Shown here: positions 3,104 through 26,926 of the stretch, in pieces | How the letters are laid out: each line of letters opens with the position of its first letter | Position numbering within the stretch: the stretch's first letter is position 1 | DNA from: a virus | Taxonomy: Duplodnaviria > Heunggongvirae > Uroviricota > Caudoviricetes | IMG/VR virus record: IMGVR_UViG_2541047966_000009 | Reading direction: 5' to 3' (one strand) | DNA length: 34,397 nucleotides | Notes under the pieces: model-generated | What the model was told of the DNA's origin: nothing | Databases searched by the model: none | The model's input: the letters and a program-made list of their open reading frames with translations, nothing else | Translations under genes and position numbers: made by a program

Positions 3104-4254
3104 TTTTTCTTCTCCTTAATCACCGTCGATGTACTGCCATCCGGGTGATAAACCGTGAGTTTCTGAGTTTTTTGTTTTTTCCCTCTTGTGACTGGCCCCC
3201 GTGCCACTTCCAGCTCTGTGGTGTAGCCGCTGTTACGCTCAAACGCATGGCGGGCAGTGATTATCAGCCATGGACCGGATAACTGTCCAAAGCCCACCAG
3301 TTCAATTTTGTTGCCTGCTGTCAGTTGAGGCGTTCCCGTCAGCGTCAGGGAGCCGTTCTGCTGGTATTCGTTATGTCTGGCCAGTGCTGAATCCGCTTTA
3401 ATCCGGGCACTGTCCGGGTCGCTGACACGGCTGTTAACTTTAAGTGAGTCAGCGCTGGTAACCTTACCACCTTTGAGCTTTTTGTCGCTTTCACGGGTAC
3501 CACCATCAGCTTCGTAGACGATCAGTTTTTTACTGCTGCTTTTCTGGTGTTTTACCTTTGCAGATTTATAGACCCGGTTGATGGTGTCACGCAGGGAAAA
3601 GCGGGCCACATCCTGCGGTTTTAACTGCCTGACCGGCTCCTGACTGCGCAGTGTGGCCAGATGAGAAAAAATCAACTGGTCACTGACCACTTTCACTGCA
3701 TAACCATACTCGCTGGCCAGCCGGCGCAGAAAACCCACGTCGGTTTCAGCATACTGGGTCACCCGGTCGATTTTGATGGACTCAATGCTGCCCACCAGTT
3801 TCAGTCGGTGCTTTCTGGCAATCCGCCCCGCAACAGCTGCCAGCGTGGTGTTCTCAAAACCACGGCTGGATTTAGTCCGCAGAGCACTGTTAACCGAGGT
3901 GGCCACCCCACGGATAGCGACAACGGACGCGGGCGAACTCACTTCGATCTCGTCTATTGAGAATGTACCGCAGGACAGCAGTTTCTCGCCCTGATAACCC
4001 ATTTTCAGCGTCAGCGTGTCACCCTTGCCCGGATACCACTTATCCAGCCAGCGACCATCGGTGTCATCCAGCTCCACCTCAATGGTATCGGACTCATTTT
4101 TGATGTTATCGCTCCAGGTCACACGGGTGACATAAGGCGCGATATCAGAGGTGATATTTTTCTGCAGATACCACAGAGTGAACACCGGCGTCAGCACATC
4201 GCTGACGCCGGTTAACGCTGATACGTCTTGCGCAGTACTGTTTATCTCAGCCAT
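3100..4254 (-). CDS. tail/baseplate hub protein, P2 gpD / Mu gp44 (P)-like
   Basis: 384-aa ORF; size and synteny downstream of tape measure module. Confidence 0.65.
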   Translation of the reverse strand: MAEINSTAQDVSALTGVSDVLTPVFTLWYLQKNITSDIAPYVTRVTWSDNIKNESDTIEVELDDTDGRWLDKWYPGKGDTLTLKMGYQGEKLLSCGTFSIDEIEVSSPASVVAIRGVATSVNSALRTKSSRGFENTTLAAVAGRIARKHRLKLVGSIESIKIDRVTQYAETDVGFLRRLASEYGYAVKVVSDQLIFSHLATLRSQEPVRQLKPQDVARFSLRDTINRVYKSAKVKHQKSSSKKLIVYEADGGTRESDKKLKGGKVTSADSLKVNSRVSDPDSARIKADSALARHNEYQQNGSLTLTGTPQLTAGNKIELVGFGQLSGPWLIITARHAFERNSGYTTELEVARGPVTRGKKQKTQKLTVYHPDGSTSTVIKEKKK

Positions 4255-20620: not shown

Positions 20621-21338
20621 AACTGCTGCCTCCCCATGTGAGATATCGCGGTGCCAGTTCGCGCAGGATGCGCTGCGGATAATGGCGGTTCTCCCGCCAG
20701 CTGGCCGCATTGCGTCCGGCATTCACCGTGGCGACATGTCCGAACCAGCGGGTGCTGTCCAGACCTTTCTGTGATGCAAGCCGCCTGTCCCGTTGTACCC
20801 AGCCCAGACCACCGTTATAGCCCGACAGTGTCATGGCCATACGCTCGCAGTCGTTGGCGGCGCTTACGCGCTGCCACAGCCAGCGGTCATAGCTGACCAG
20901 CGCCCGGATAGCCCATGCAGGATTAAACGGCTCACGACTGCTCAGCATCGGTATCAACTGGCTTATCCAGTCGGCAGTGGCAGGCATGAACTGCGCCAGT
21001 CCCTGAGCGCCAGCCGGCGAGACCGCATCAGGTCGCCAGCCGCTTTCCTGATGCAGTTGCGCGGCGAAATCGGCCACCGGCGCAGACAGTCCCCATTCAA
21101 GCCGGGCATTACGGATCACATCATCGCGATACTGCAGCGCAGCCTGCGGAGGCTGCGCTGCGCGGGCCTGACTGAAGAAGCCGCCACACCAGAGCAGCCA
21201 GACAATCACCAGGTTGCCAGCAAGCTGCCACCAGAAGCTGTATTTATCGTTACGTGGTTCTCCGTGCCTGATGGCGGTTACGCCCAGACCAAAGGCGAAC
21301 AGAATAATGAGGGTGATTTGAGGCCAGTTCATGGTCAC
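20604..21338 (-). CDS. endolysin: lytic transglycosylase (SLT domain) with N-terminal membrane/SAR-like segments
   Basis: SLT catalytic region ...AAQLHQESGWRPDAVSPAGAQGLAQFMPATA...; N-terminus has two hydrophobic stretches; sits between holin-like and spanin genes. Confidence 0.75.
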   Translation of the reverse strand: MTMNWPQITLIILFAFGLGVTAIRHGEPRNDKYSFWWQLAGNLVIVWLLWCGGFFSQARAAQPPQAALQYRDDVIRNARLEWGLSAPVADFAAQLHQESGWRPDAVSPAGAQGLAQFMPATADWISQLIPMLSSREPFNPAWAIRALVSYDRWLWQRVSAANDCERMAMTLSGYNGGLGWVQRDRRLASQKGLDSTRWFGHVATVNAGRNAASWRENRHYPQRILRELAPRYLTWGGSSCVASG

Positions 21339-21685
21339 AGTCCTGTTGCCACAGCCAGACAGACCGCTGCAACAATCAGTGCACGGCGGATTAACGCAGC
21401 AGAAAATACAAGGTGAAGGCCGGTCTGCACAGGGAAACGCCCTTCAGCCATCAGTCTGTCGTCATGTTTCAGGTACTGACCGGGACGGGCTTTGGGGAAG
21501 AGCGAACGGTCAAGCCAGTAACCCAGCACTGCTGCCAGCGTGATGAGTGCCAGCTTGTAGATCACAACAGGCAACTGCTGTGGCGAGACCAGAGCGATGG
21601 TGCCCAGCAGCAGCACTGAGGTCAGCAGCCAGCCGCTGAGGCGAGGTTTTTTAACAGGGGGAATGAATTTTTTCAGGTTTTTCAT
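21335..21685 (-). CDS. putative holin/pinholin (3 predicted TM segments)
   Basis: Start at ATG (MKNLKKF...) preceded by strong SD GAGGAG; three hydrophobic segments; first gene of lysis cassette, overlapping endolysin start. Confidence 0.5.
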   Translation of the reverse strand: MKNLKKFIPPVKKPRLSGWLLTSVLLLGTIALVSPQQLPVVIYKLALITLAAVLGYWLDRSLFPKARPGQYLKHDDRLMAEGRFPVQTGLHLVFSAALIRRALIVAAVCLAVATGL

Positions 21686-21932
21686 GTGTGTCTCCTCGTT
21701 TGGTGGAGACAGCATCACAAATGTGGCGGGATACGGATTTTAAACAGCGTTAATAGTGAAGATGTAAACGTGCACTGCATGATGGCTTTGAAAGAACGAC
21801 CAGCCCGGTACCCGAACACCGGGCTGGCCATCGCCCCACAGGAATGCGCTGTGAGCCGACCAAGGTTCAGTCAGTCTCGCGAGACCAGACTAGCCTGCCA
21901 TATTTTTTATAATTGTAAAAGGCTTACAGATT
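21686..21932. promoter_or_regulatory. divergent intergenic region: candidate late-operon promoter (leftward) and dam promoter (rightward)
   Basis: 247-bp non-coding gap between divergent holin and methyltransferase genes; contains perfect 10-bp inverted repeat CCAGCCCGGT-n8-ACCGGGCTGG at ~21800-21827 and AT-rich TTTTTTATAATTGTAAAAGG before dam. Confidence 0.4.
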
Positions 21933-22703
21933 ATGAAAATGCAGACATTACCCATCGTTCCATGGATTGGTGGCAAACGCCGCCTTGCAAAACACATCCT
22001 GCCGCTGTTTCCGGCGCATGAATGTTATGTGGAGCCGTTTTGTGGGGCAGCAGCGCTCTATTTTCTTAAGGTACCCGGCAAGATCGAAGTCATTAATGAT
22101 ATCAACGGTGAGCTGGTGAACCTGTATCGGGTGGTAAAACATCATCTGGAAGAATTTGTACGCCAGTTCAAATGGGCGCTGGTCAGCCGGCAGATCTACA
22201 AATGGCTGCAGATCACCCCGGAAGAAACACTGACGGATATCCAGCGTGCAGCACGGTTCTACTACCTTCAGAAGCAGGCGTTTGGGGGCAAGGTGGCGGA
22301 GCACAGCTTTGGTACCTCCACCATATCCCCGCCACGCTTCAACCTGCTGCGTATTGAAGAAGAACTGTCAGCGGCACACCTGCGGCTTTCCAGAACGGTC
22401 ATAGAACACATGGACTGGCAACAGTGCATAGAACGATATGATCGCCCGCATACGTTGTTCTACTGTGACCCTCCATACTGGGGAACGGAAGGTTATGGTG
22501 TGGAGTTCGGACTAGAAAATTATGATCATATGGCAGATTTAGCACGCAGGATCAAAGGGAAGATGATTATATCGGTGAACGATATCCCGGAAATGCGGCA
22601 GGCATTCAACGGTCTAAATATTCAGTCGGTTGATATCAGCTACAACCTCAAGATCACTGGCAAATCCAGTCGCAAGAAGGAACTCATTATCCTCAACTTT
22701 TGA
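21933..22703 (+). CDS. DNA N6-adenine methyltransferase, Dam-like, apparently orphan
   Basis: 256-aa ORF; SAM-binding motif EPFCGAAALYF near N-terminus and catalytic DPPY (FYCDPPYWGTEGYG) near C-terminus; no adjacent restriction endonuclease candidate. Confidence 0.8.
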   Translation: MKMQTLPIVPWIGGKRRLAKHILPLFPAHECYVEPFCGAAALYFLKVPGKIEVINDINGELVNLYRVVKHHLEEFVRQFKWALVSRQIYKWLQITPEETLTDIQRAARFYYLQKQAFGGKVAEHSFGTSTISPPRFNLLRIEEELSAAHLRLSRTVIEHMDWQQCIERYDRPHTLFYCDPPYWGTEGYGVEFGLENYDHMADLARRIKGKMIISVNDIPEMRQAFNGLNIQSVDISYNLKITGKSSRKKELIILNF

Positions 22704-23898
22704 CCGAATAGTAAGACTTCATGCAGTGAATCAAGTACTGCATGAAGTCAAGGGCTGGTTTTGTGTACCAAAAATAAACAGTGATAGCGGTAATAATTCC
22801 CATAACTAGAACACCACGTATAATCCAGAACGTACGTTTCTGCGTGTCTAGTCGCGCAGAAATACTGCTAAATACACCAGCCACGTCATCTTTAATGAAG
22901 GAATATTCCTTATTAATCTGTTTTTCTTTGTATTCAATTTCTTCGCCTAAGGCCTTTATAGATTGCATCTGGTTCGAAAGTGCCAGCCAGATTAACGTTG
23001 CAGCAAAAATGCATCCCAGAAGAATTATTGTGTTTGTTATCCCTTGGCCTGACCATTTCGTAGCCACTTTGAATTGGGTAGCTACGATAACAGAGGCAAC
23101 AGGAATGCCAAGTATATGGTTCTGGATATCTGAAAACGCTTTGTGGATTTTACCCATTTCTTCGACTTTTGCAGCACGCAGTTGATCCATTACTTTGTCA
23201 TAAGAGAATCCAGAAGAGTAGATACGATACCCTTTCAGAAACTTTTCATGCAGACGCTGAATATTGTCCAGTAAATAAGCGAATACTAGAGGTGAATCAA
23301 TTCCATCACTAACTGCTTGAATACTTTCAATCAGAATATCTAGCTTCTGATCCTTATGGGTATCATCATTGAAACAAGCTATAAGGTTATCAAGATACTC
23401 CCTTTGCAAATTTTGTACATTTTCTGCAGCGAAGTGCGGTAATAGCTTGATAACTTCTTTTTTCAGAAAAACTAACTGACAAGTTGAGTTATCAAAGTAG
23501 GCCGCGGCCTCTTTTAGCAGGTTAACGAACTCGAGAATCTTCCGGTAGTTGCTGATGAAAACGGGGATATCTTCATCATCATTACGAAATTTTGTTTCTA
23601 GGATGAAGTAATTAGCTGGCTCAAGGCACTGATGCTTTGGAGCATTTAGCAATTTTTCATGGGTGGAAAACACAAGTCCCAGTCCACTCCGTGGTGACGT
23701 CACACGTAGGATGATCGTGTTACCTGGAGCGATAGTGCCTGTATCAATAGAAAGACCATATTCACGAGGATCATCAAGCAAAGTATCAACCAGATCACAA
23801 TCGGACTGATCTAAGAGCAACAGCGAACCGACACGAAACCCCTCTTGGAATTCCATACGACGATACAGAGCTGTCAGCATCTCAAATGAAATCGCCAC
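22693..23898 (-). CDS. membrane protein of unknown function (large N-terminal soluble domain, two C-terminal TM helices); candidate effector
   Basis: 401-aa ORF, AT-rich; GTG start 2 nt after NdpA-like stop (coupled), internal ATG 18 nt later; hydrophobic ITNTIILLGCIFAATLIWLAL and TFWIIRGVLVMGIITAITVYFWY near C-terminus; no recognisable catalytic motif. Confidence 0.6.
   Translation of the reverse strand: MAISFEMLTALYRRMEFQEGFRVGSLLLLDQSDCDLVDTLLDDPREYGLSIDTGTIAPGNTIILRVTSPRSGLGLVFSTHEKLLNAPKHQCLEPANYFILETKFRNDDEDIPVFISNYRKILEFVNLLKEAAAYFDNSTCQLVFLKKEVIKLLPHFAAENVQNLQREYLDNLIACFNDDTHKDQKLDILIESIQAVSDGIDSPLVFAYLLDNIQRLHEKFLKGYRIYSSGFSYDKVMDQLRAAKVEEMGKIHKAFSDIQNHILGIPVASVIVATQFKVATKWSGQGITNTIILLGCIFAATLIWLALSNQMQSIKALGEEIEYKEKQINKEYSFIKDDVAGVFSSISARLDTQKRTFWIIRGVLVMGIITAITVYFWYTKPALDFMQYLIHCMKSYYSVKS
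22715..22749. other. perfect 13-bp inverted repeat (hairpin) at the convergent dam / membrane-protein gene ends
   Basis: GACTTCATGCAGT-gaatcaagt-ACTGCATGAAGTC, starting ~12 nt after the dam stop and overlapping the last codons of the minus-strand 401-aa gene; no adjacent U-tract. Confidence 0.4.
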
Positions 23899-23900
23899 GA

Positions 23901-24908
23901 TTAAACCTCAGTCATCCACATTTCCCTAAATTCTTCAGGTACATTACGTAGGGTGATAATATTTGTTTCCGGATCATAATCAATATAGCCTTCAGTTTTC
24001 CCTTCCCGGTCAAACTTAAGTTCCCAATATTTAGACTTGCCTTTAAAAGATACCAGAGCCCGAATGACTCGACCATCAGGAACGAAGCCATCCGATAACT
24101 CCAACTCTTCAGCAGCAAGTTTACCAGATAACTCCTCGGGAGCCTGGGGCCAAATGGCATTAACAAGGGTTTCAAGACTAAGTGGTTCACCAGCCTTACT
24201 TAGTGCATGTAAGTGTTCAAACGCATTCTTAAGAAATGCATCTTTTTCAGCGCCGTCAAGTCCTTTCTCTGCCGCAAATGCTTTTAAAACGTCACGTAAC
24301 TTTTCAGACTCTCGTTTGGCGATTAAGACATCATTACAGCCTAGGAACTGTTTAAAATAGTTTGAAACATTACCTTGCCCCTTAAGAAAACTGATATAGC
24401 GCTCTGCGCCACTTTCCCACGCGGTTAAGTCAATGCGCCCAGCCATACGCAGCTTAGCAATATCAAGATAGGTACTATCTTGGATGTTAAAATCATCTGT
24501 GACAGTGGACCCAATGGTAGCGCTTACAATAGCTATCAACAGGTGTTCATTGTGTCCTATCACGATATTTGCAAAAAGAACATAACCACCAGTAGCCATG
24601 TTTTCTCGCTGAGAACGTTCCGTCAGGTGATGCATCATTCGGCAGGAACTTTGGTAGAAATCATCAACACCTTCGAGAAAGTCCCCAGCCATTCGTTCCA
24701 TAGGATAGTTATCCGTATCGCCTTCAAAATAGCCATAACCTTTACCTGTGCGTCCTGCATATTTTGCACAAATATCGTTTATAAGGCGCTGAGAGGCTTC
24801 AGTAACTAGACCTTCTTCAGGACTCAATCTCTCAGAAGCGTCTCCATTTTGTTGTTTGTCTAAAATGTGAACTACAACGTGTTTAACTTCAATGGTCTGC
24901 TCAGACAT
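23901..24908 (-). CDS. divergent NdpA/YejK-family nucleoid-associated protein homologue
   Basis: 335-aa ORF (same length as E. coli YejK); recalled family similarity in ...GGYVLFANIV..., ...STYLDIAKLRMAGRIDLTAWESGAERYISFLKGQGNVSNYFKQFLG... and C-terminal ...YDPETNIITLRNVPEEFRE; SD AAGGTGG 8 nt upstream; AT-rich. Confidence 0.6.
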   Translation of the reverse strand: MSEQTIEVKHVVVHILDKQQNGDASERLSPEEGLVTEASQRLINDICAKYAGRTGKGYGYFEGDTDNYPMERMAGDFLEGVDDFYQSSCRMMHHLTERSQRENMATGGYVLFANIVIGHNEHLLIAIVSATIGSTVTDDFNIQDSTYLDIAKLRMAGRIDLTAWESGAERYISFLKGQGNVSNYFKQFLGCNDVLIAKRESEKLRDVLKAFAAEKGLDGAEKDAFLKNAFEHLHALSKAGEPLSLETLVNAIWPQAPEELSGKLAAEELELSDGFVPDGRVIRALVSFKGKSKYWELKFDREGKTEGYIDYDPETNIITLRNVPEEFREMWMTEV

Positions 24909-24978
24909 TGGCTATCCACCTTATTTTTTATTGCTTAATGGCAAATAATTTCTGCTATATGTTCTCGTTAGGAACACA

Positions 24979-25386
24979 TTAACCCACATTTTTTAACCGC
25001 TCAATCGTTGCGGATAATTCCTTCAGTTGTTTTTCCATCTCAATCACACGCTGTTTTTCTTCAGCGCCTCGCATGAGATCTCGCCGAACCTCAGGATCTA
25101 ACTGGTTTAGAAGTTCAAGCATTTTAAGGTCTGACGGGCTGAATTGATGTTGTGTTGGTACAGCAACAATTTCTTTAGATGGAATATGTTCTTTACCGGT
25201 AAGTAGCCAATCGATCGATACACCCAAATGGGCACTTAGCGCAACAAGAGCCTCTGCGTTTGGTTCTCTCTCTCCACGCAAATAGTTTTGAAGTGAGCGA
25301 TATGGAATTTTTGATAAGTCAGATAATGCCTTTATTGTCATGCCATTAGCATCCATCACTTCACGCAATCTCTCTTTTGTACTCAT
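24979..25386 (-). CDS. prophage repressor, XRE-family HTH
   Basis: Start at ATG MSTKERLREVMDANGMTIKALSDLSKIPYRSLQNYLRGEREPNAEALVALSAHLGVSIDWLL (HTH at N-terminus), coiled-coil C-terminus; divergent from Ner-like gene; ORF-track TTG start at 25482 unlikely. Confidence 0.7.
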   Translation of the reverse strand: MSTKERLREVMDANGMTIKALSDLSKIPYRSLQNYLRGEREPNAEALVALSAHLGVSIDWLLTGKEHIPSKEIVAVPTQHQFSPSDLKMLELLNQLDPEVRRDLMRGAEEKQRVIEMEKQLKELSATIERLKNVG

Positions 25387-25402
25387 TTGAACATATCTCA
25401 AT

Positions 25403-25430
25403 TTGACACACTCATTTGGGTGTGTACAAT
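25403..25430 (+). promoter_or_regulatory. candidate sigma70 early promoter with overlapping operator-like inverted repeat
   Basis: TTGACA-16 nt-TACAAT about 40 nt upstream of the Ner-like start; inverted repeat ACACAC-n8-GTGTGT (~25406-25425) overlaps spacer and -10. Confidence 0.5.
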
Positions 25431-25468
25431 AGACCCAATAGAGTACATCATAACCTAACAGGAACACG

Positions 25469-25699
25469 GTGCATATGAACAAACAACAAGTTCGGGCACG
25501 GCTGGTTGAACGAGGCAGTAGCTTGCGCCAGTTCGCGCTTAACGCGGGCTATGAACCACGAACAGTCACCCAGGCAGTCAGTCGCTGGGCTGGTAAAAGT
25601 GAACTACCTCGCGGTCGTTTGACTTATCGGATTTTGCGAGATCTATCGGTTGCAATAGGTAAAGAAGTTACCCCCGGTATCCTTAAGGAGGCGTCATGA
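25469..25699 (+). CDS. ner: Ner-like DNA-binding regulator (Mu Ner/Nlp family)
   Basis: 76-aa ORF; ...RARLVERGSSLRQFALNAGYEPRTVTQAVSRWAG... resembles Ner-family HTH; first gene of rightward early operon; GTG start with AGGA 6 nt upstream (ATG 2 codons later). Confidence 0.65.
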   Translation: MHMNKQQVRARLVERGSSLRQFALNAGYEPRTVTQAVSRWAGKSELPRGRLTYRILRDLSVAIGKEVTPGILKEAS

Positions 25700-26004
25700 A
25701 TAAACCAAATACATCAAGCTCAGGTACCCGTATTTTGCGCGTTCTTAAGGCCTTACGTGGCCACGCTTTGAACGGTGTTTCTAACGGGGAACTAGCGGTT
25801 GCACTGCACGAATCACCGGCAAACATCAACCGGGCACTTAACACGCTCATTGAAGAAGGGTTGGCTCTGAAACTAGAAAACGGGCGTTTCGCACCAGGCA
25901 TCCAGTTGCTGCAGATCGCCATGGCCCACAGTAACGAGATGGCACGTGCACAGGATCGCATTAACGAAATCAACCAACGTGTTATTTCAGGTAGTCGTTT
26001 GTAA
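25696..26004 (+). CDS. small winged-helix transcriptional regulator (IclR-type N-terminal HTH-like)
   Basis: 102-aa ORF overlapping Ner-like stop (ATGA); RILRVLKALRGHALNGVSNGELAVALHESPANINRALNTLIEEGLA pattern. Confidence 0.5.
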   Translation: MNKPNTSSSGTRILRVLKALRGHALNGVSNGELAVALHESPANINRALNTLIEEGLALKLENGRFAPGIQLLQIAMAHSNEMARAQDRINEINQRVISGSRL

Positions 26005-26014
26005 GGAGTAATCA

Positions 26015-26926
26015 ATGGGACGCACCAAATCACCGGTTAGCACTGAACTGAACGTCGAGGTACCGCTGTCGGATGATCTCAATGTCAGTCTAAACGCCAT
26101 GACACAGCATCGCATGGAAATCATGCAACAGTTCGGCGATGGTCTGCCCTATGAGCGCGATCGTGTTGCCCATGAGGCACGCTTTTATATGGCACAGAGC
26201 GCTGAGGCCATGCTGGAGGCAGGTAAGCGGCTGATAATCCTTAAGGAAAATGAACCACACGGGGAGTTTATAAAGATTCTTGAAAGTGAGTTGGGGCTGG
26301 CATACCGGACATCTGTGAGAATGATGCAAGCATCGACAAAATACTTATCCCCGGCGCTGAAACCAAATGTGCCAACGTTGGCACATTTGGGAAAAGCCAA
26401 ACTTTTCGAATTAATGACAGAAGACGACGAAGAGCTTGCCGAACTGGCCGACGGCGGCACAGTTGCCGGCCTGACGCTTGACGACGTTGATCGCATGTCA
26501 GTACGCGAACTTCGCCAGGCCCTGCGCGAAGCGCGCGAAACCAACGCAGCACAACAGCGCGTACTCGCCGATAAAAATGAAAAAATTGATTCTCTCTCTA
26601 CCAGACTGGAAAAGAAATCCCGTATTCAGCCGCCTGAGCCTGATGAGGAGGTTAAGAAGCTGCGGGCGGAAGTGACAGCATTAGCGGTTGAGGCGGAATC
26701 TGCTATCGCCGTTCGACTGTCCAGCGCTTTTGAGACACTGTGCGCATATTGTGCTGAAAACATGATTGATACCCCCAGAGACTTCATGGCAGGCCTGGTC
26801 TGTCAACTGGAAAGCACAGCGCGTAGCCTGCGCTCCACATTTGACCTGCCGGACGAGCCAACAGGCAATGCAGCGCCTTCATGGCTGACTGAGCCGACGC
26901 CACAGATTAACGGGCTGGAGGCATAA
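26015..26926 (+). CDS. conserved hypothetical early protein
   Basis: 303-aa ORF between regulators and transposase; acidic, coiled-coil-like middle; no catalytic motif recognised. Confidence 0.5.
   Translation: MGRTKSPVSTELNVEVPLSDDLNVSLNAMTQHRMEIMQQFGDGLPYERDRVAHEARFYMAQSAEAMLEAGKRLIILKENEPHGEFIKILESELGLAYRTSVRMMQASTKYLSPALKPNVPTLAHLGKAKLFELMTEDDEELAELADGGTVAGLTLDDVDRMSVRELRQALREARETNAAQQRVLADKNEKIDSLSTRLEKKSRIQPPEPDEEVKKLRAEVTALAVEAESAIAVRLSSAFETLCAYCAENMIDTPRDFMAGLVCQLESTARSLRSTFDLPDEPTGNAAPSWLTEPTPQINGLEA

Follow-up and report, generated by a model that had tools for sequence, protein, structure and literature searches.

In phage lambda the cI-rexA-rexB genes end at a terminator and represent the layout of a moron or lysogenic-conversion cassette, in which accessory genes follow the repressor. 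Mapping of 3' ends in E. coli has shown that 3'-end stem-loops lacking a U-tract protect mRNAs after Rho-dependent termination. The type II PANGU system, described from E. coli, consists of the nucleoid-associated sensor Pag2A and the membrane effector Pag2B (bioRxiv 10.64898/2026.04.06.716658). A locus that bears comparison with each of these, as well as with the intrinsic terminators found between convergent genes, is present in an E. coli prophage (IMG/VR record IMGVR_UViG_2541047966_000009), the whole analysed stretch of which (34,397 nucleotides) is called the window below. At a junction of two convergent genes the window contains a perfect inverted repeat (22715-22749), and on the best reading this would be an ordinary terminator-like stem-loop, of non-canonical form, at the edge between dam and a swapped-in defence cassette.

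The window has a Mu-like layout of the BcepMu type. The late genes run leftward from the holin (about 21685-21718) and encode an SLT lysin, a Mu gp27-like protein and the head and tail proteins, while the early genes run rightward from 25475 and encode a Ner-like protein, an IclR-like HTH protein, a DUF3102 protein, a DDE transposase and a B-like ATPase. Between these two sets lie dam, the cargo and the repressor. The dam gene (21933-22703, + strand) is part of the backbone and codes for a D12-class DNA adenine methyltransferase (Pfam MethyltransfD12, E = 7e-28). The prophage repressor (HTH_3/Phage_CI_repr; 24979-25386, - strand, using the RefSeq start) is immediately upstream of the cargo and co-directional with it. 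The first cargo gene (23901-24908, - strand) encodes a Pag2A-like nucleoid-associated protein of the NA37/YejK type (E = 6e-81), and the second (22693-23898, - strand) a 401-aa protein with a soluble N-terminal part, C-terminal membrane helices and a variable tail of 23 aa.

The GC content is 0.38-0.44 across 22501-25500 against 0.51-0.60 for the rest of the window. Homology to prophages with other cargo stops at 22606-22703, within the last 100 nt of dam, and resumes at 24959, 20 nt after the repressor stop; therefore the exchangeable cassette spans about 22704-24958 (2.25 kb) and the repeat is on the cargo side of the boundary. This bears out the original prediction that AT-rich cargo meets dam at the repeat. 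Among 5426 complete E. coli genomes the dam/repressor backbone is present in 556, only 19 of these have this cargo, and a search of phage databases returned no deposited phage with this cassette, the matches being to the backbone only. The right-hand boundary of the cassette is the stretch of backbone behind the repressor stop (24959-24978, - strand). It holds a small inverted repeat, TGTTC-n7-GAACA (24961-24977, - strand), which directly follows the stop codon and is conserved among prophages that differ in their cargo. The cargo genes begin 35-70 nt behind the repressor stop, the start codon in sister prophages being at 35-40 nt, and this 5-bp inverted repeat is all that intervenes. In the window the cassette starts about 50 nt after the backbone sequence behind the repressor stop, in the same direction. 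The cassette has its own ribosome-binding site and no evident promoter of its own, and we infer that the cargo is part of, or close behind, a leftward lysogenic transcript shared with the repressor.

Cargo occurs at two hotspots in this prophage family, as judged from the window and the loci L004, L032-L034, L038, L041, L046 and L129. At the first, where the window has its cassette, dam and the repressor face each other with their 3' ends; at the second (about 21758-21789), which is empty in the window, the flanking ends are the 5' ends of dam and of the holin gene. In Serratia, Klebsiella and other hosts the same module of NA37 and membrane-protein genes is found at the second. In one further contig (L029; Logan contig SRR6049603_9463) the cassette is accompanied by repressor fragments and the last 26 codons of dam, with unrelated genes for 633-aa and 127-aa proteins as neighbours; this may be a decayed prophage, or a cassette that was carried away together with parts of its flanking sequence.

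Homologues of the 401-aa protein are numerous, and their genes are nearly always preceded by an NA37 gene. The membrane part of the 401-aa protein has a weak match to KwaA of the Kiwa system (E = 8e-5), and its overall architecture is that of an abortive-infection membrane effector and matches Pag2B. The C-terminal tails of the homologues past the last membrane helix are highly variable. One of these proteins (P0021) carries at its C-terminus a tandem duplication (AWVQSFFAWVQSFFA), which fits a freely changing tail.

The arms of the inverted repeat, GACTTCATGCAGT (22715-22727) and ACTGCATGAAGTC (22737-22749) on the + strand, are complementary at 13 of 13 positions and enclose a spacer of 9 nt (22728-22736) that forms the loop; in RNA of the - strand the left arm becomes the 3' arm and the right arm the 5' arm. 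The original prediction of a perfect 13-bp repeat with an n9 spacer is thus exact, and its judgement that such a repeat is unlikely by chance also stands: it is the longest perfect inverted repeat of the window (loops of 3-20 nt scanned), and arms of at least 13 bp arise in only 1% of 200 dinucleotide-preserving shuffles of the whole window. The folding-energy check that accompanied the prediction gave a stable hairpin on both strands, with -24.9 kcal/mol (z = -4.8) on the + strand and -22.1 kcal/mol (z = -3.8) on the - strand, the 13-bp core of the stem having energies of -20.4 and -19.0 kcal/mol, respectively. Six of the 13 pairs are G-C (46% GC), and the loop is 9 nt on the - strand and 7 nt on the + strand if a closing G-U pair forms. 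Since this loop exceeds the 8-nt limit of the consensus terminator scan, the element was not listed by that scan. A scan of 21300-25800 against Rfam on both strands, with E-values up to 1, gave no match.

The prediction had further stated that no U-tract adjoins the stem. This is correct for the + strand, where the 3' flank is AAGGGCUG, with 1 U in 8 and a U-run only 9 nt further on. It does not hold for the - strand, where the stem is directly followed by UUACUAUU, with 5 U in 8, albeit interrupted; the U-rich tail on this strand (UUACUAUUCGG, 22704-22714) is inside the 401-aa reading frame. The placement of the repeat at the convergent dam/cargo junction, in the last codons of the 401-aa gene, is also as foreseen. 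The two reading frames overlap by 11 nt, the dam stop codon precedes the start of the stem by 12 nt, and the repeat spans codons D384-S395 of 401, with the right arm encoding D384-F-M-Q, so that the stem is coding over its entire length. On the - strand the 401-aa gene continues for 18 nt beyond the stem before its stop codon. Termination at the hairpin would hence produce an mRNA without a stop codon, which weakens the case for a role in the leftward direction, and ribosomes translating the 401-aa gene should melt the stem and suppress termination.

Three other perfect inverted repeats of 12 bp, with loops of 4-5 nt, are present in the window (4184-4212, 21134-21161 and 26363-26390). Repeats of this kind are expected at 0.025 per window in shuffles, and all three are apparently inside coding regions.

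To place the repeat in context, 80 related viral contigs were fetched with the Dam protein and the sequence after the dam stop was inspected. Twelve other junction types with a convergent cargo gene were recognized, comprising close enterobacterial backbones and the loci L003 and L004, and in 12 of 12 a hairpin of 7-14 perfect bp starts 5-34 nt after the dam stop. These hairpins are all different and have no sequence in common. Several of them show canonical U-tracts on one or both strands, as in L041 (ACCGGAAAGCA/TGCTTTCCGGT, with TTTTGTT on the - strand), L053 (GCAGGCCGC/GCGGCCTGC, followed by TTTGTT on the + strand) and the bidirectional hairpin of L043 (AAAAGGGGGA/TCCCCCTTTT, with an A-tract and a U-tract on both sides). 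In others, namely L046 (14 bp) and L051 (12 bp), long perfect stems have no U-tract and the cargo stop codon is inside the stem. Where no convergent reading frame of at least 60 aa is nearby (L040), a long stem followed by TTTTTT constitutes a canonical + strand terminator, and where a co-directional gene follows dam (L048) the hairpin is absent. The cassette in the window ends in a hairpin at a site where every other convergent cassette ends in a hairpin of its own. Judged from these sequences, the repeat is the local version of a general junction feature that comes with the cassette and not with the backbone, and the window is the extreme case among the junctions in that the entire stem is coding. 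A terminator for the convergent genes, the first of the functions originally proposed, is favoured by this recurrence, with the qualification that the element is not a canonical one.

The fate of the hairpin can also be followed within the family of the 401-aa gene itself. Distant homologues nearly always end in a GC-rich hairpin that overlaps the stop codon or directly follows it (e.g. TGA-CGGCCAATATGGCCGTC and TAA-TGGGCCATAAGGCCCATTTTT). Among close relatives at this position, likewise convergent with dam, the copies from Mixta, E. coli AREA_C483 and several metagenome contigs (91-95% aa identity) have intact arms and one change in the loop; a single change creates a G-U pair on the - strand in L160, and in L029 one pair is G-U and another is mismatched. 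The Yersinia-type copies, at 87% identity, differ by 2-3 changes, which are mismatches on the - strand and all G-U on the + strand, where 13 of 13 pairs are kept (-19.8 and -23.7 kcal/mol). The Brenneria copy (82% identity) forms a 9-bp hairpin, ACTACATGC/GCATGTAGT, with a compensatory change from U-A to A-U. The changed base in the 3' arm is the first base of a codon that reads TAG (stop) in Brenneria and AAG (Lys) in E. coli, and the Brenneria gene ends inside the stem, which is followed by UGUUUUUCU, non-coding there. The same UGUUUUUCU follows the stem on the - strand in the Pectobacterium relatives, where it is likewise non-coding; the hairpin of these copies, with 4 mismatches on the - strand, is partly or largely decayed. 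In the Serratia, Klebsiella and L129 groups, whose module is at the second hotspot, the repeat is absent. Across the family, relatives with a convergent dam retain the hairpin (-11 to -24 kcal/mol), whereas loss of dam or a different location of the module goes with its decay or absence.

Some of these relatives show further rearrangements. In the Pectobacterium-type loci L007 and L122-L125 dam is deleted but for its last few codons, the gene for the membrane protein immediately precedes the holin, and the hairpin of the junction is decayed. The L129-L131 copies, whose protein is 46% identical to the 401-aa protein, have an independent hairpin of 10-11 bp (AAGUGAUGUC..GGCAUCACUU) from 44 to 19 nt before the stop, in the region coding for the tail, which makes them the second example in this family of a 3' hairpin within coding sequence.

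From the TAG codon in the 3' arm and the U-run behind it in Brenneria and Pectobacterium, we infer that the hairpin descended from an intrinsic terminator of the leftward transcript. In the lineage of E. coli, Mixta and Yersinia the TAG would have changed to AAG, with the paired base on the other arm changing to match; in the same lineage the reading frame would have become 7 codons longer, running into dam, and the U-run would have decayed to UUACUAUU. In its present form the hairpin is probably a weak, translation-sensitive terminator of the leftward transcript. It may also, or instead, act as a 3'-end stem-loop of the dam mRNA, positioned 12 nt after the stop, where it would block 3'-to-5' exonucleases after termination further downstream; for this mRNA, without a U-tract, it would be a protecting 3'-end stem-loop rather than a terminator proper. 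Either role might limit convergent read-through. On the - strand, polymerase reading through would transcribe dam in antisense and then enter the holin and lysis genes in the sense orientation, and it therefore makes biological sense for the cassette to be closed by a hairpin. On balance we lean, with moderate confidence, towards a current function at the RNA level, as a terminator or a 3'-end stem-loop on one or both strands.

A second and much stronger terminator-like hairpin of 16 bp is present on the - strand at 21795-21832 (-30 kcal/mol, z = -4.4, followed by CUUUC). Its position, with the dam start on one side and the holin gene on the other, would let it halt leftward transcription ahead of the lysis genes, and it may do most of the insulating. 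Further on, the Shine-Dalgarno sequence of the holin is in the 3' arm of a hairpin, GUCUCC..GGAGAC (21689-21711, - strand). Hairpins with unrelated sequences, CUCCUGAU..AUCAGGAG and UGCCUUCAU..AUGGAGGCA, occupy the same place at the holin in L032 (4775-4811) and L129 (2748-2771), which suggests that a translational lock on the first lysis gene has been conserved. Together, the 21795-21832 hairpin and the one at the holin of the window suggest several layers of insulation of the lysis genes.

The principal alternative to a current RNA-level function is that the repeat is a functionless remnant, an ancestral terminator that was absorbed into the fast-evolving tail after the stop-codon change and now drifts neutrally, its perfection in E. 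coli reflecting no more than the young age of the copies. The decay of the U-tract, the high variability of the protein tail across the family and the possibility that the 21795-21832 hairpin could insulate by itself all agree with such drift, as does the decay of the stem with divergence, with the 2-3 mismatches on the - strand in the Yersinia-type copies rising to 4 in Pectobacterium. Moreover, the conservation of the arms is no better than the average of the gene: among 8 close relatives 6 of the 26 arm columns vary, and the gene-wide mean for equivalent windows is 6.04. When compared with the rest of the tail, where 21 of 46 columns vary, the difference is not significant (Fisher p = 0.077), and the constraint on the arms is apparently weak. 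Against neutral drift, the loop is the most variable part among the relatives, with 8 of 9 columns varying as opposed to 6 of 26 in the arms, and the compensatory change kept a pair across the loss of the stop codon. The changes in the Yersinia-type arms all preserve + strand pairing through G-U, and the hairpin is retained in every lineage with a convergent dam. Over 12 distinct sequences standard pairs occupy 87.8% of the cells, a share that drops to 28-40% if the partner is shifted by 1-3 columns. Both sides have changed in 2 of the 13 pairs, one of which couples the AAG/TAG codon to its partner base, and the covariation score of 0.183 (0.113 +/- 0.018 in shuffles) was reached by 1 of 500 shuffles. 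This covariation appears to support the structure, although the evolutionary events behind it number one or two and the sequences are related. Counting wobble pairs to identify the acting strand showed no preference, with 128 Watson-Crick and 9 G-U pairs on the - strand versus 128 and 10 on the + strand. We consider a purely neutral remnant less likely than a current function, and the terminator-like stem-loop remains the preferred reading.

A role at the level of DNA, either as a palindromic binding site for a protein of the phage or cassette or as a recombination site in cassette exchange, had also been put forward in the original prediction. Its attraction is that a perfect palindrome marks the exact edge of an exchangeable cassette, and that other cassettes too have long perfect repeats without U-tracts (the 14-bp and 12-bp stems of L046 and L051). 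The hairpins of the different cassettes, however, share no sequence, so that no backbone protein could recognize all of them, and relatives tolerate changes of the G-U type that break the palindrome in DNA. A search of the window for half-sites with up to 3 mismatches found neither a second copy nor any other paired half-site, which speaks against the proposed protein-binding site; 19 half-site matches were counted where 9.7 +/- 3.4 would be expected by chance, and 4 of them are self-matches. Of 5426 E. coli genomes, 19 contain the repeat, each at a single place and invariably within this cassette. The idea of a recombination site at the cargo boundary fares no better, as the module at the second hotspot lacks the repeat and no recombinase gene is beside the cassette. 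The alignment of related prophages that had been suggested as a check placed the cargo breakpoints not at the repeat but scattered over the final 100 nt of dam, a pattern consistent with exchange by homologous recombination in the flanking backbone genes. We accordingly regard a DNA-level site as quite improbable.

Several more specific identities were considered for the repeat and dropped. A dispersed palindromic repeat of the REP/BIME kind is out, given the single place per genome and the lack of a second copy in the window. The repeat has no GATC and is not a Dam target; it does not fit the LexA box CTGT-N8-ACAG; and a strong gyrase site was discarded on reading its sequence. For a cruciform or SbcCD-type palindrome the arms are short and the spacer long, as judged by general knowledge. 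An attC-like or att-like site was rejected because no core is shared across the 12 cassette types and no recombinase gene adjoins, and a palindromic operator because there are no paired copies and relatives tolerate transitions that keep G-U on one strand only.

Least probable of all, to a degree that we consider remote, is a translated gate on a toxic effector, in which closely following ribosomes would melt the stem and yield the full membrane effector while lagging translation would let transcripts that outrun the ribosome end before the stop, giving a non-stop message whose tmRNA-tagged protein is degraded: the stem does end 18 nt before the stop with UUACUAUU after it, the product has the architecture of an abortive-infection effector, and the unrelated tail-coding hairpin of L129-L131 at -44 to -19 is the sole hint of recurrence, but most family members have the hairpin at the stop codon or behind it, conservation of the tail is weak, and a neutral shift of the stop codon is a simpler explanation of the layout. 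If true, such a gate would keep a potentially toxic effector low in the lysogen and at the same time stop read-through towards the lysis genes.

Taken alone, the repeat matters little, being another terminator-like stem-loop at the 3' edge of phage cargo. Of wider use is that the dam stop together with the hairpin precisely delimits a hotspot for defence genes and other cargo in Mu-like enterobacterial prophages. The case also illustrates how one change of a stop codon might bring a terminator inside a reading frame without loss of the base pair.

In comparison with the described systems, the likeness to type II PANGU concerns the cargo and not the repeat: the cassette encodes a YejK/NA37-family protein followed by a protein with a soluble N-terminus and C-terminal membrane helices, and it is a candidate member on the basis of this architecture. 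The repeat itself is best compared with the intrinsic terminators at convergent junctions, including bidirectional ones. Its stem is longer and AT-richer than theirs and wholly coding, its loop has 9 nt, the + strand lacks a U-tract and the one on the - strand is interrupted. With respect to the stop codon, the hairpin is placed as an intrinsic terminator would be for dam and, in the Brenneria relative, for the cargo gene (TAG in the 3' arm), and is not so placed for the 401-aa gene of the window. It shares with these terminators a stable stem-loop between convergent gene ends and an A-rich run on one side that gives a U-rich tail on the - strand, and among the sister junctions there are canonical forms. 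The resemblance to the U-less 3'-end stem-loops of E. coli mRNAs, with a putative Rho dependence, consists in a strong stem-loop of the dam mRNA soon after the stop, the lack of a U-tract, and the untranslated antisense region that follows. Finally, while the backbone here is that of a BcepMu-type transposable phage and the cassette abuts a convergent dam, unlike in lambda, the locus has in common with the lambda rex region a defence-type cassette that is downstream of the repressor, co-directional with it and closed by a hairpin before a backbone gene, and it is like a moron in that the cassette is exchangeable between related phages and of lower GC content.
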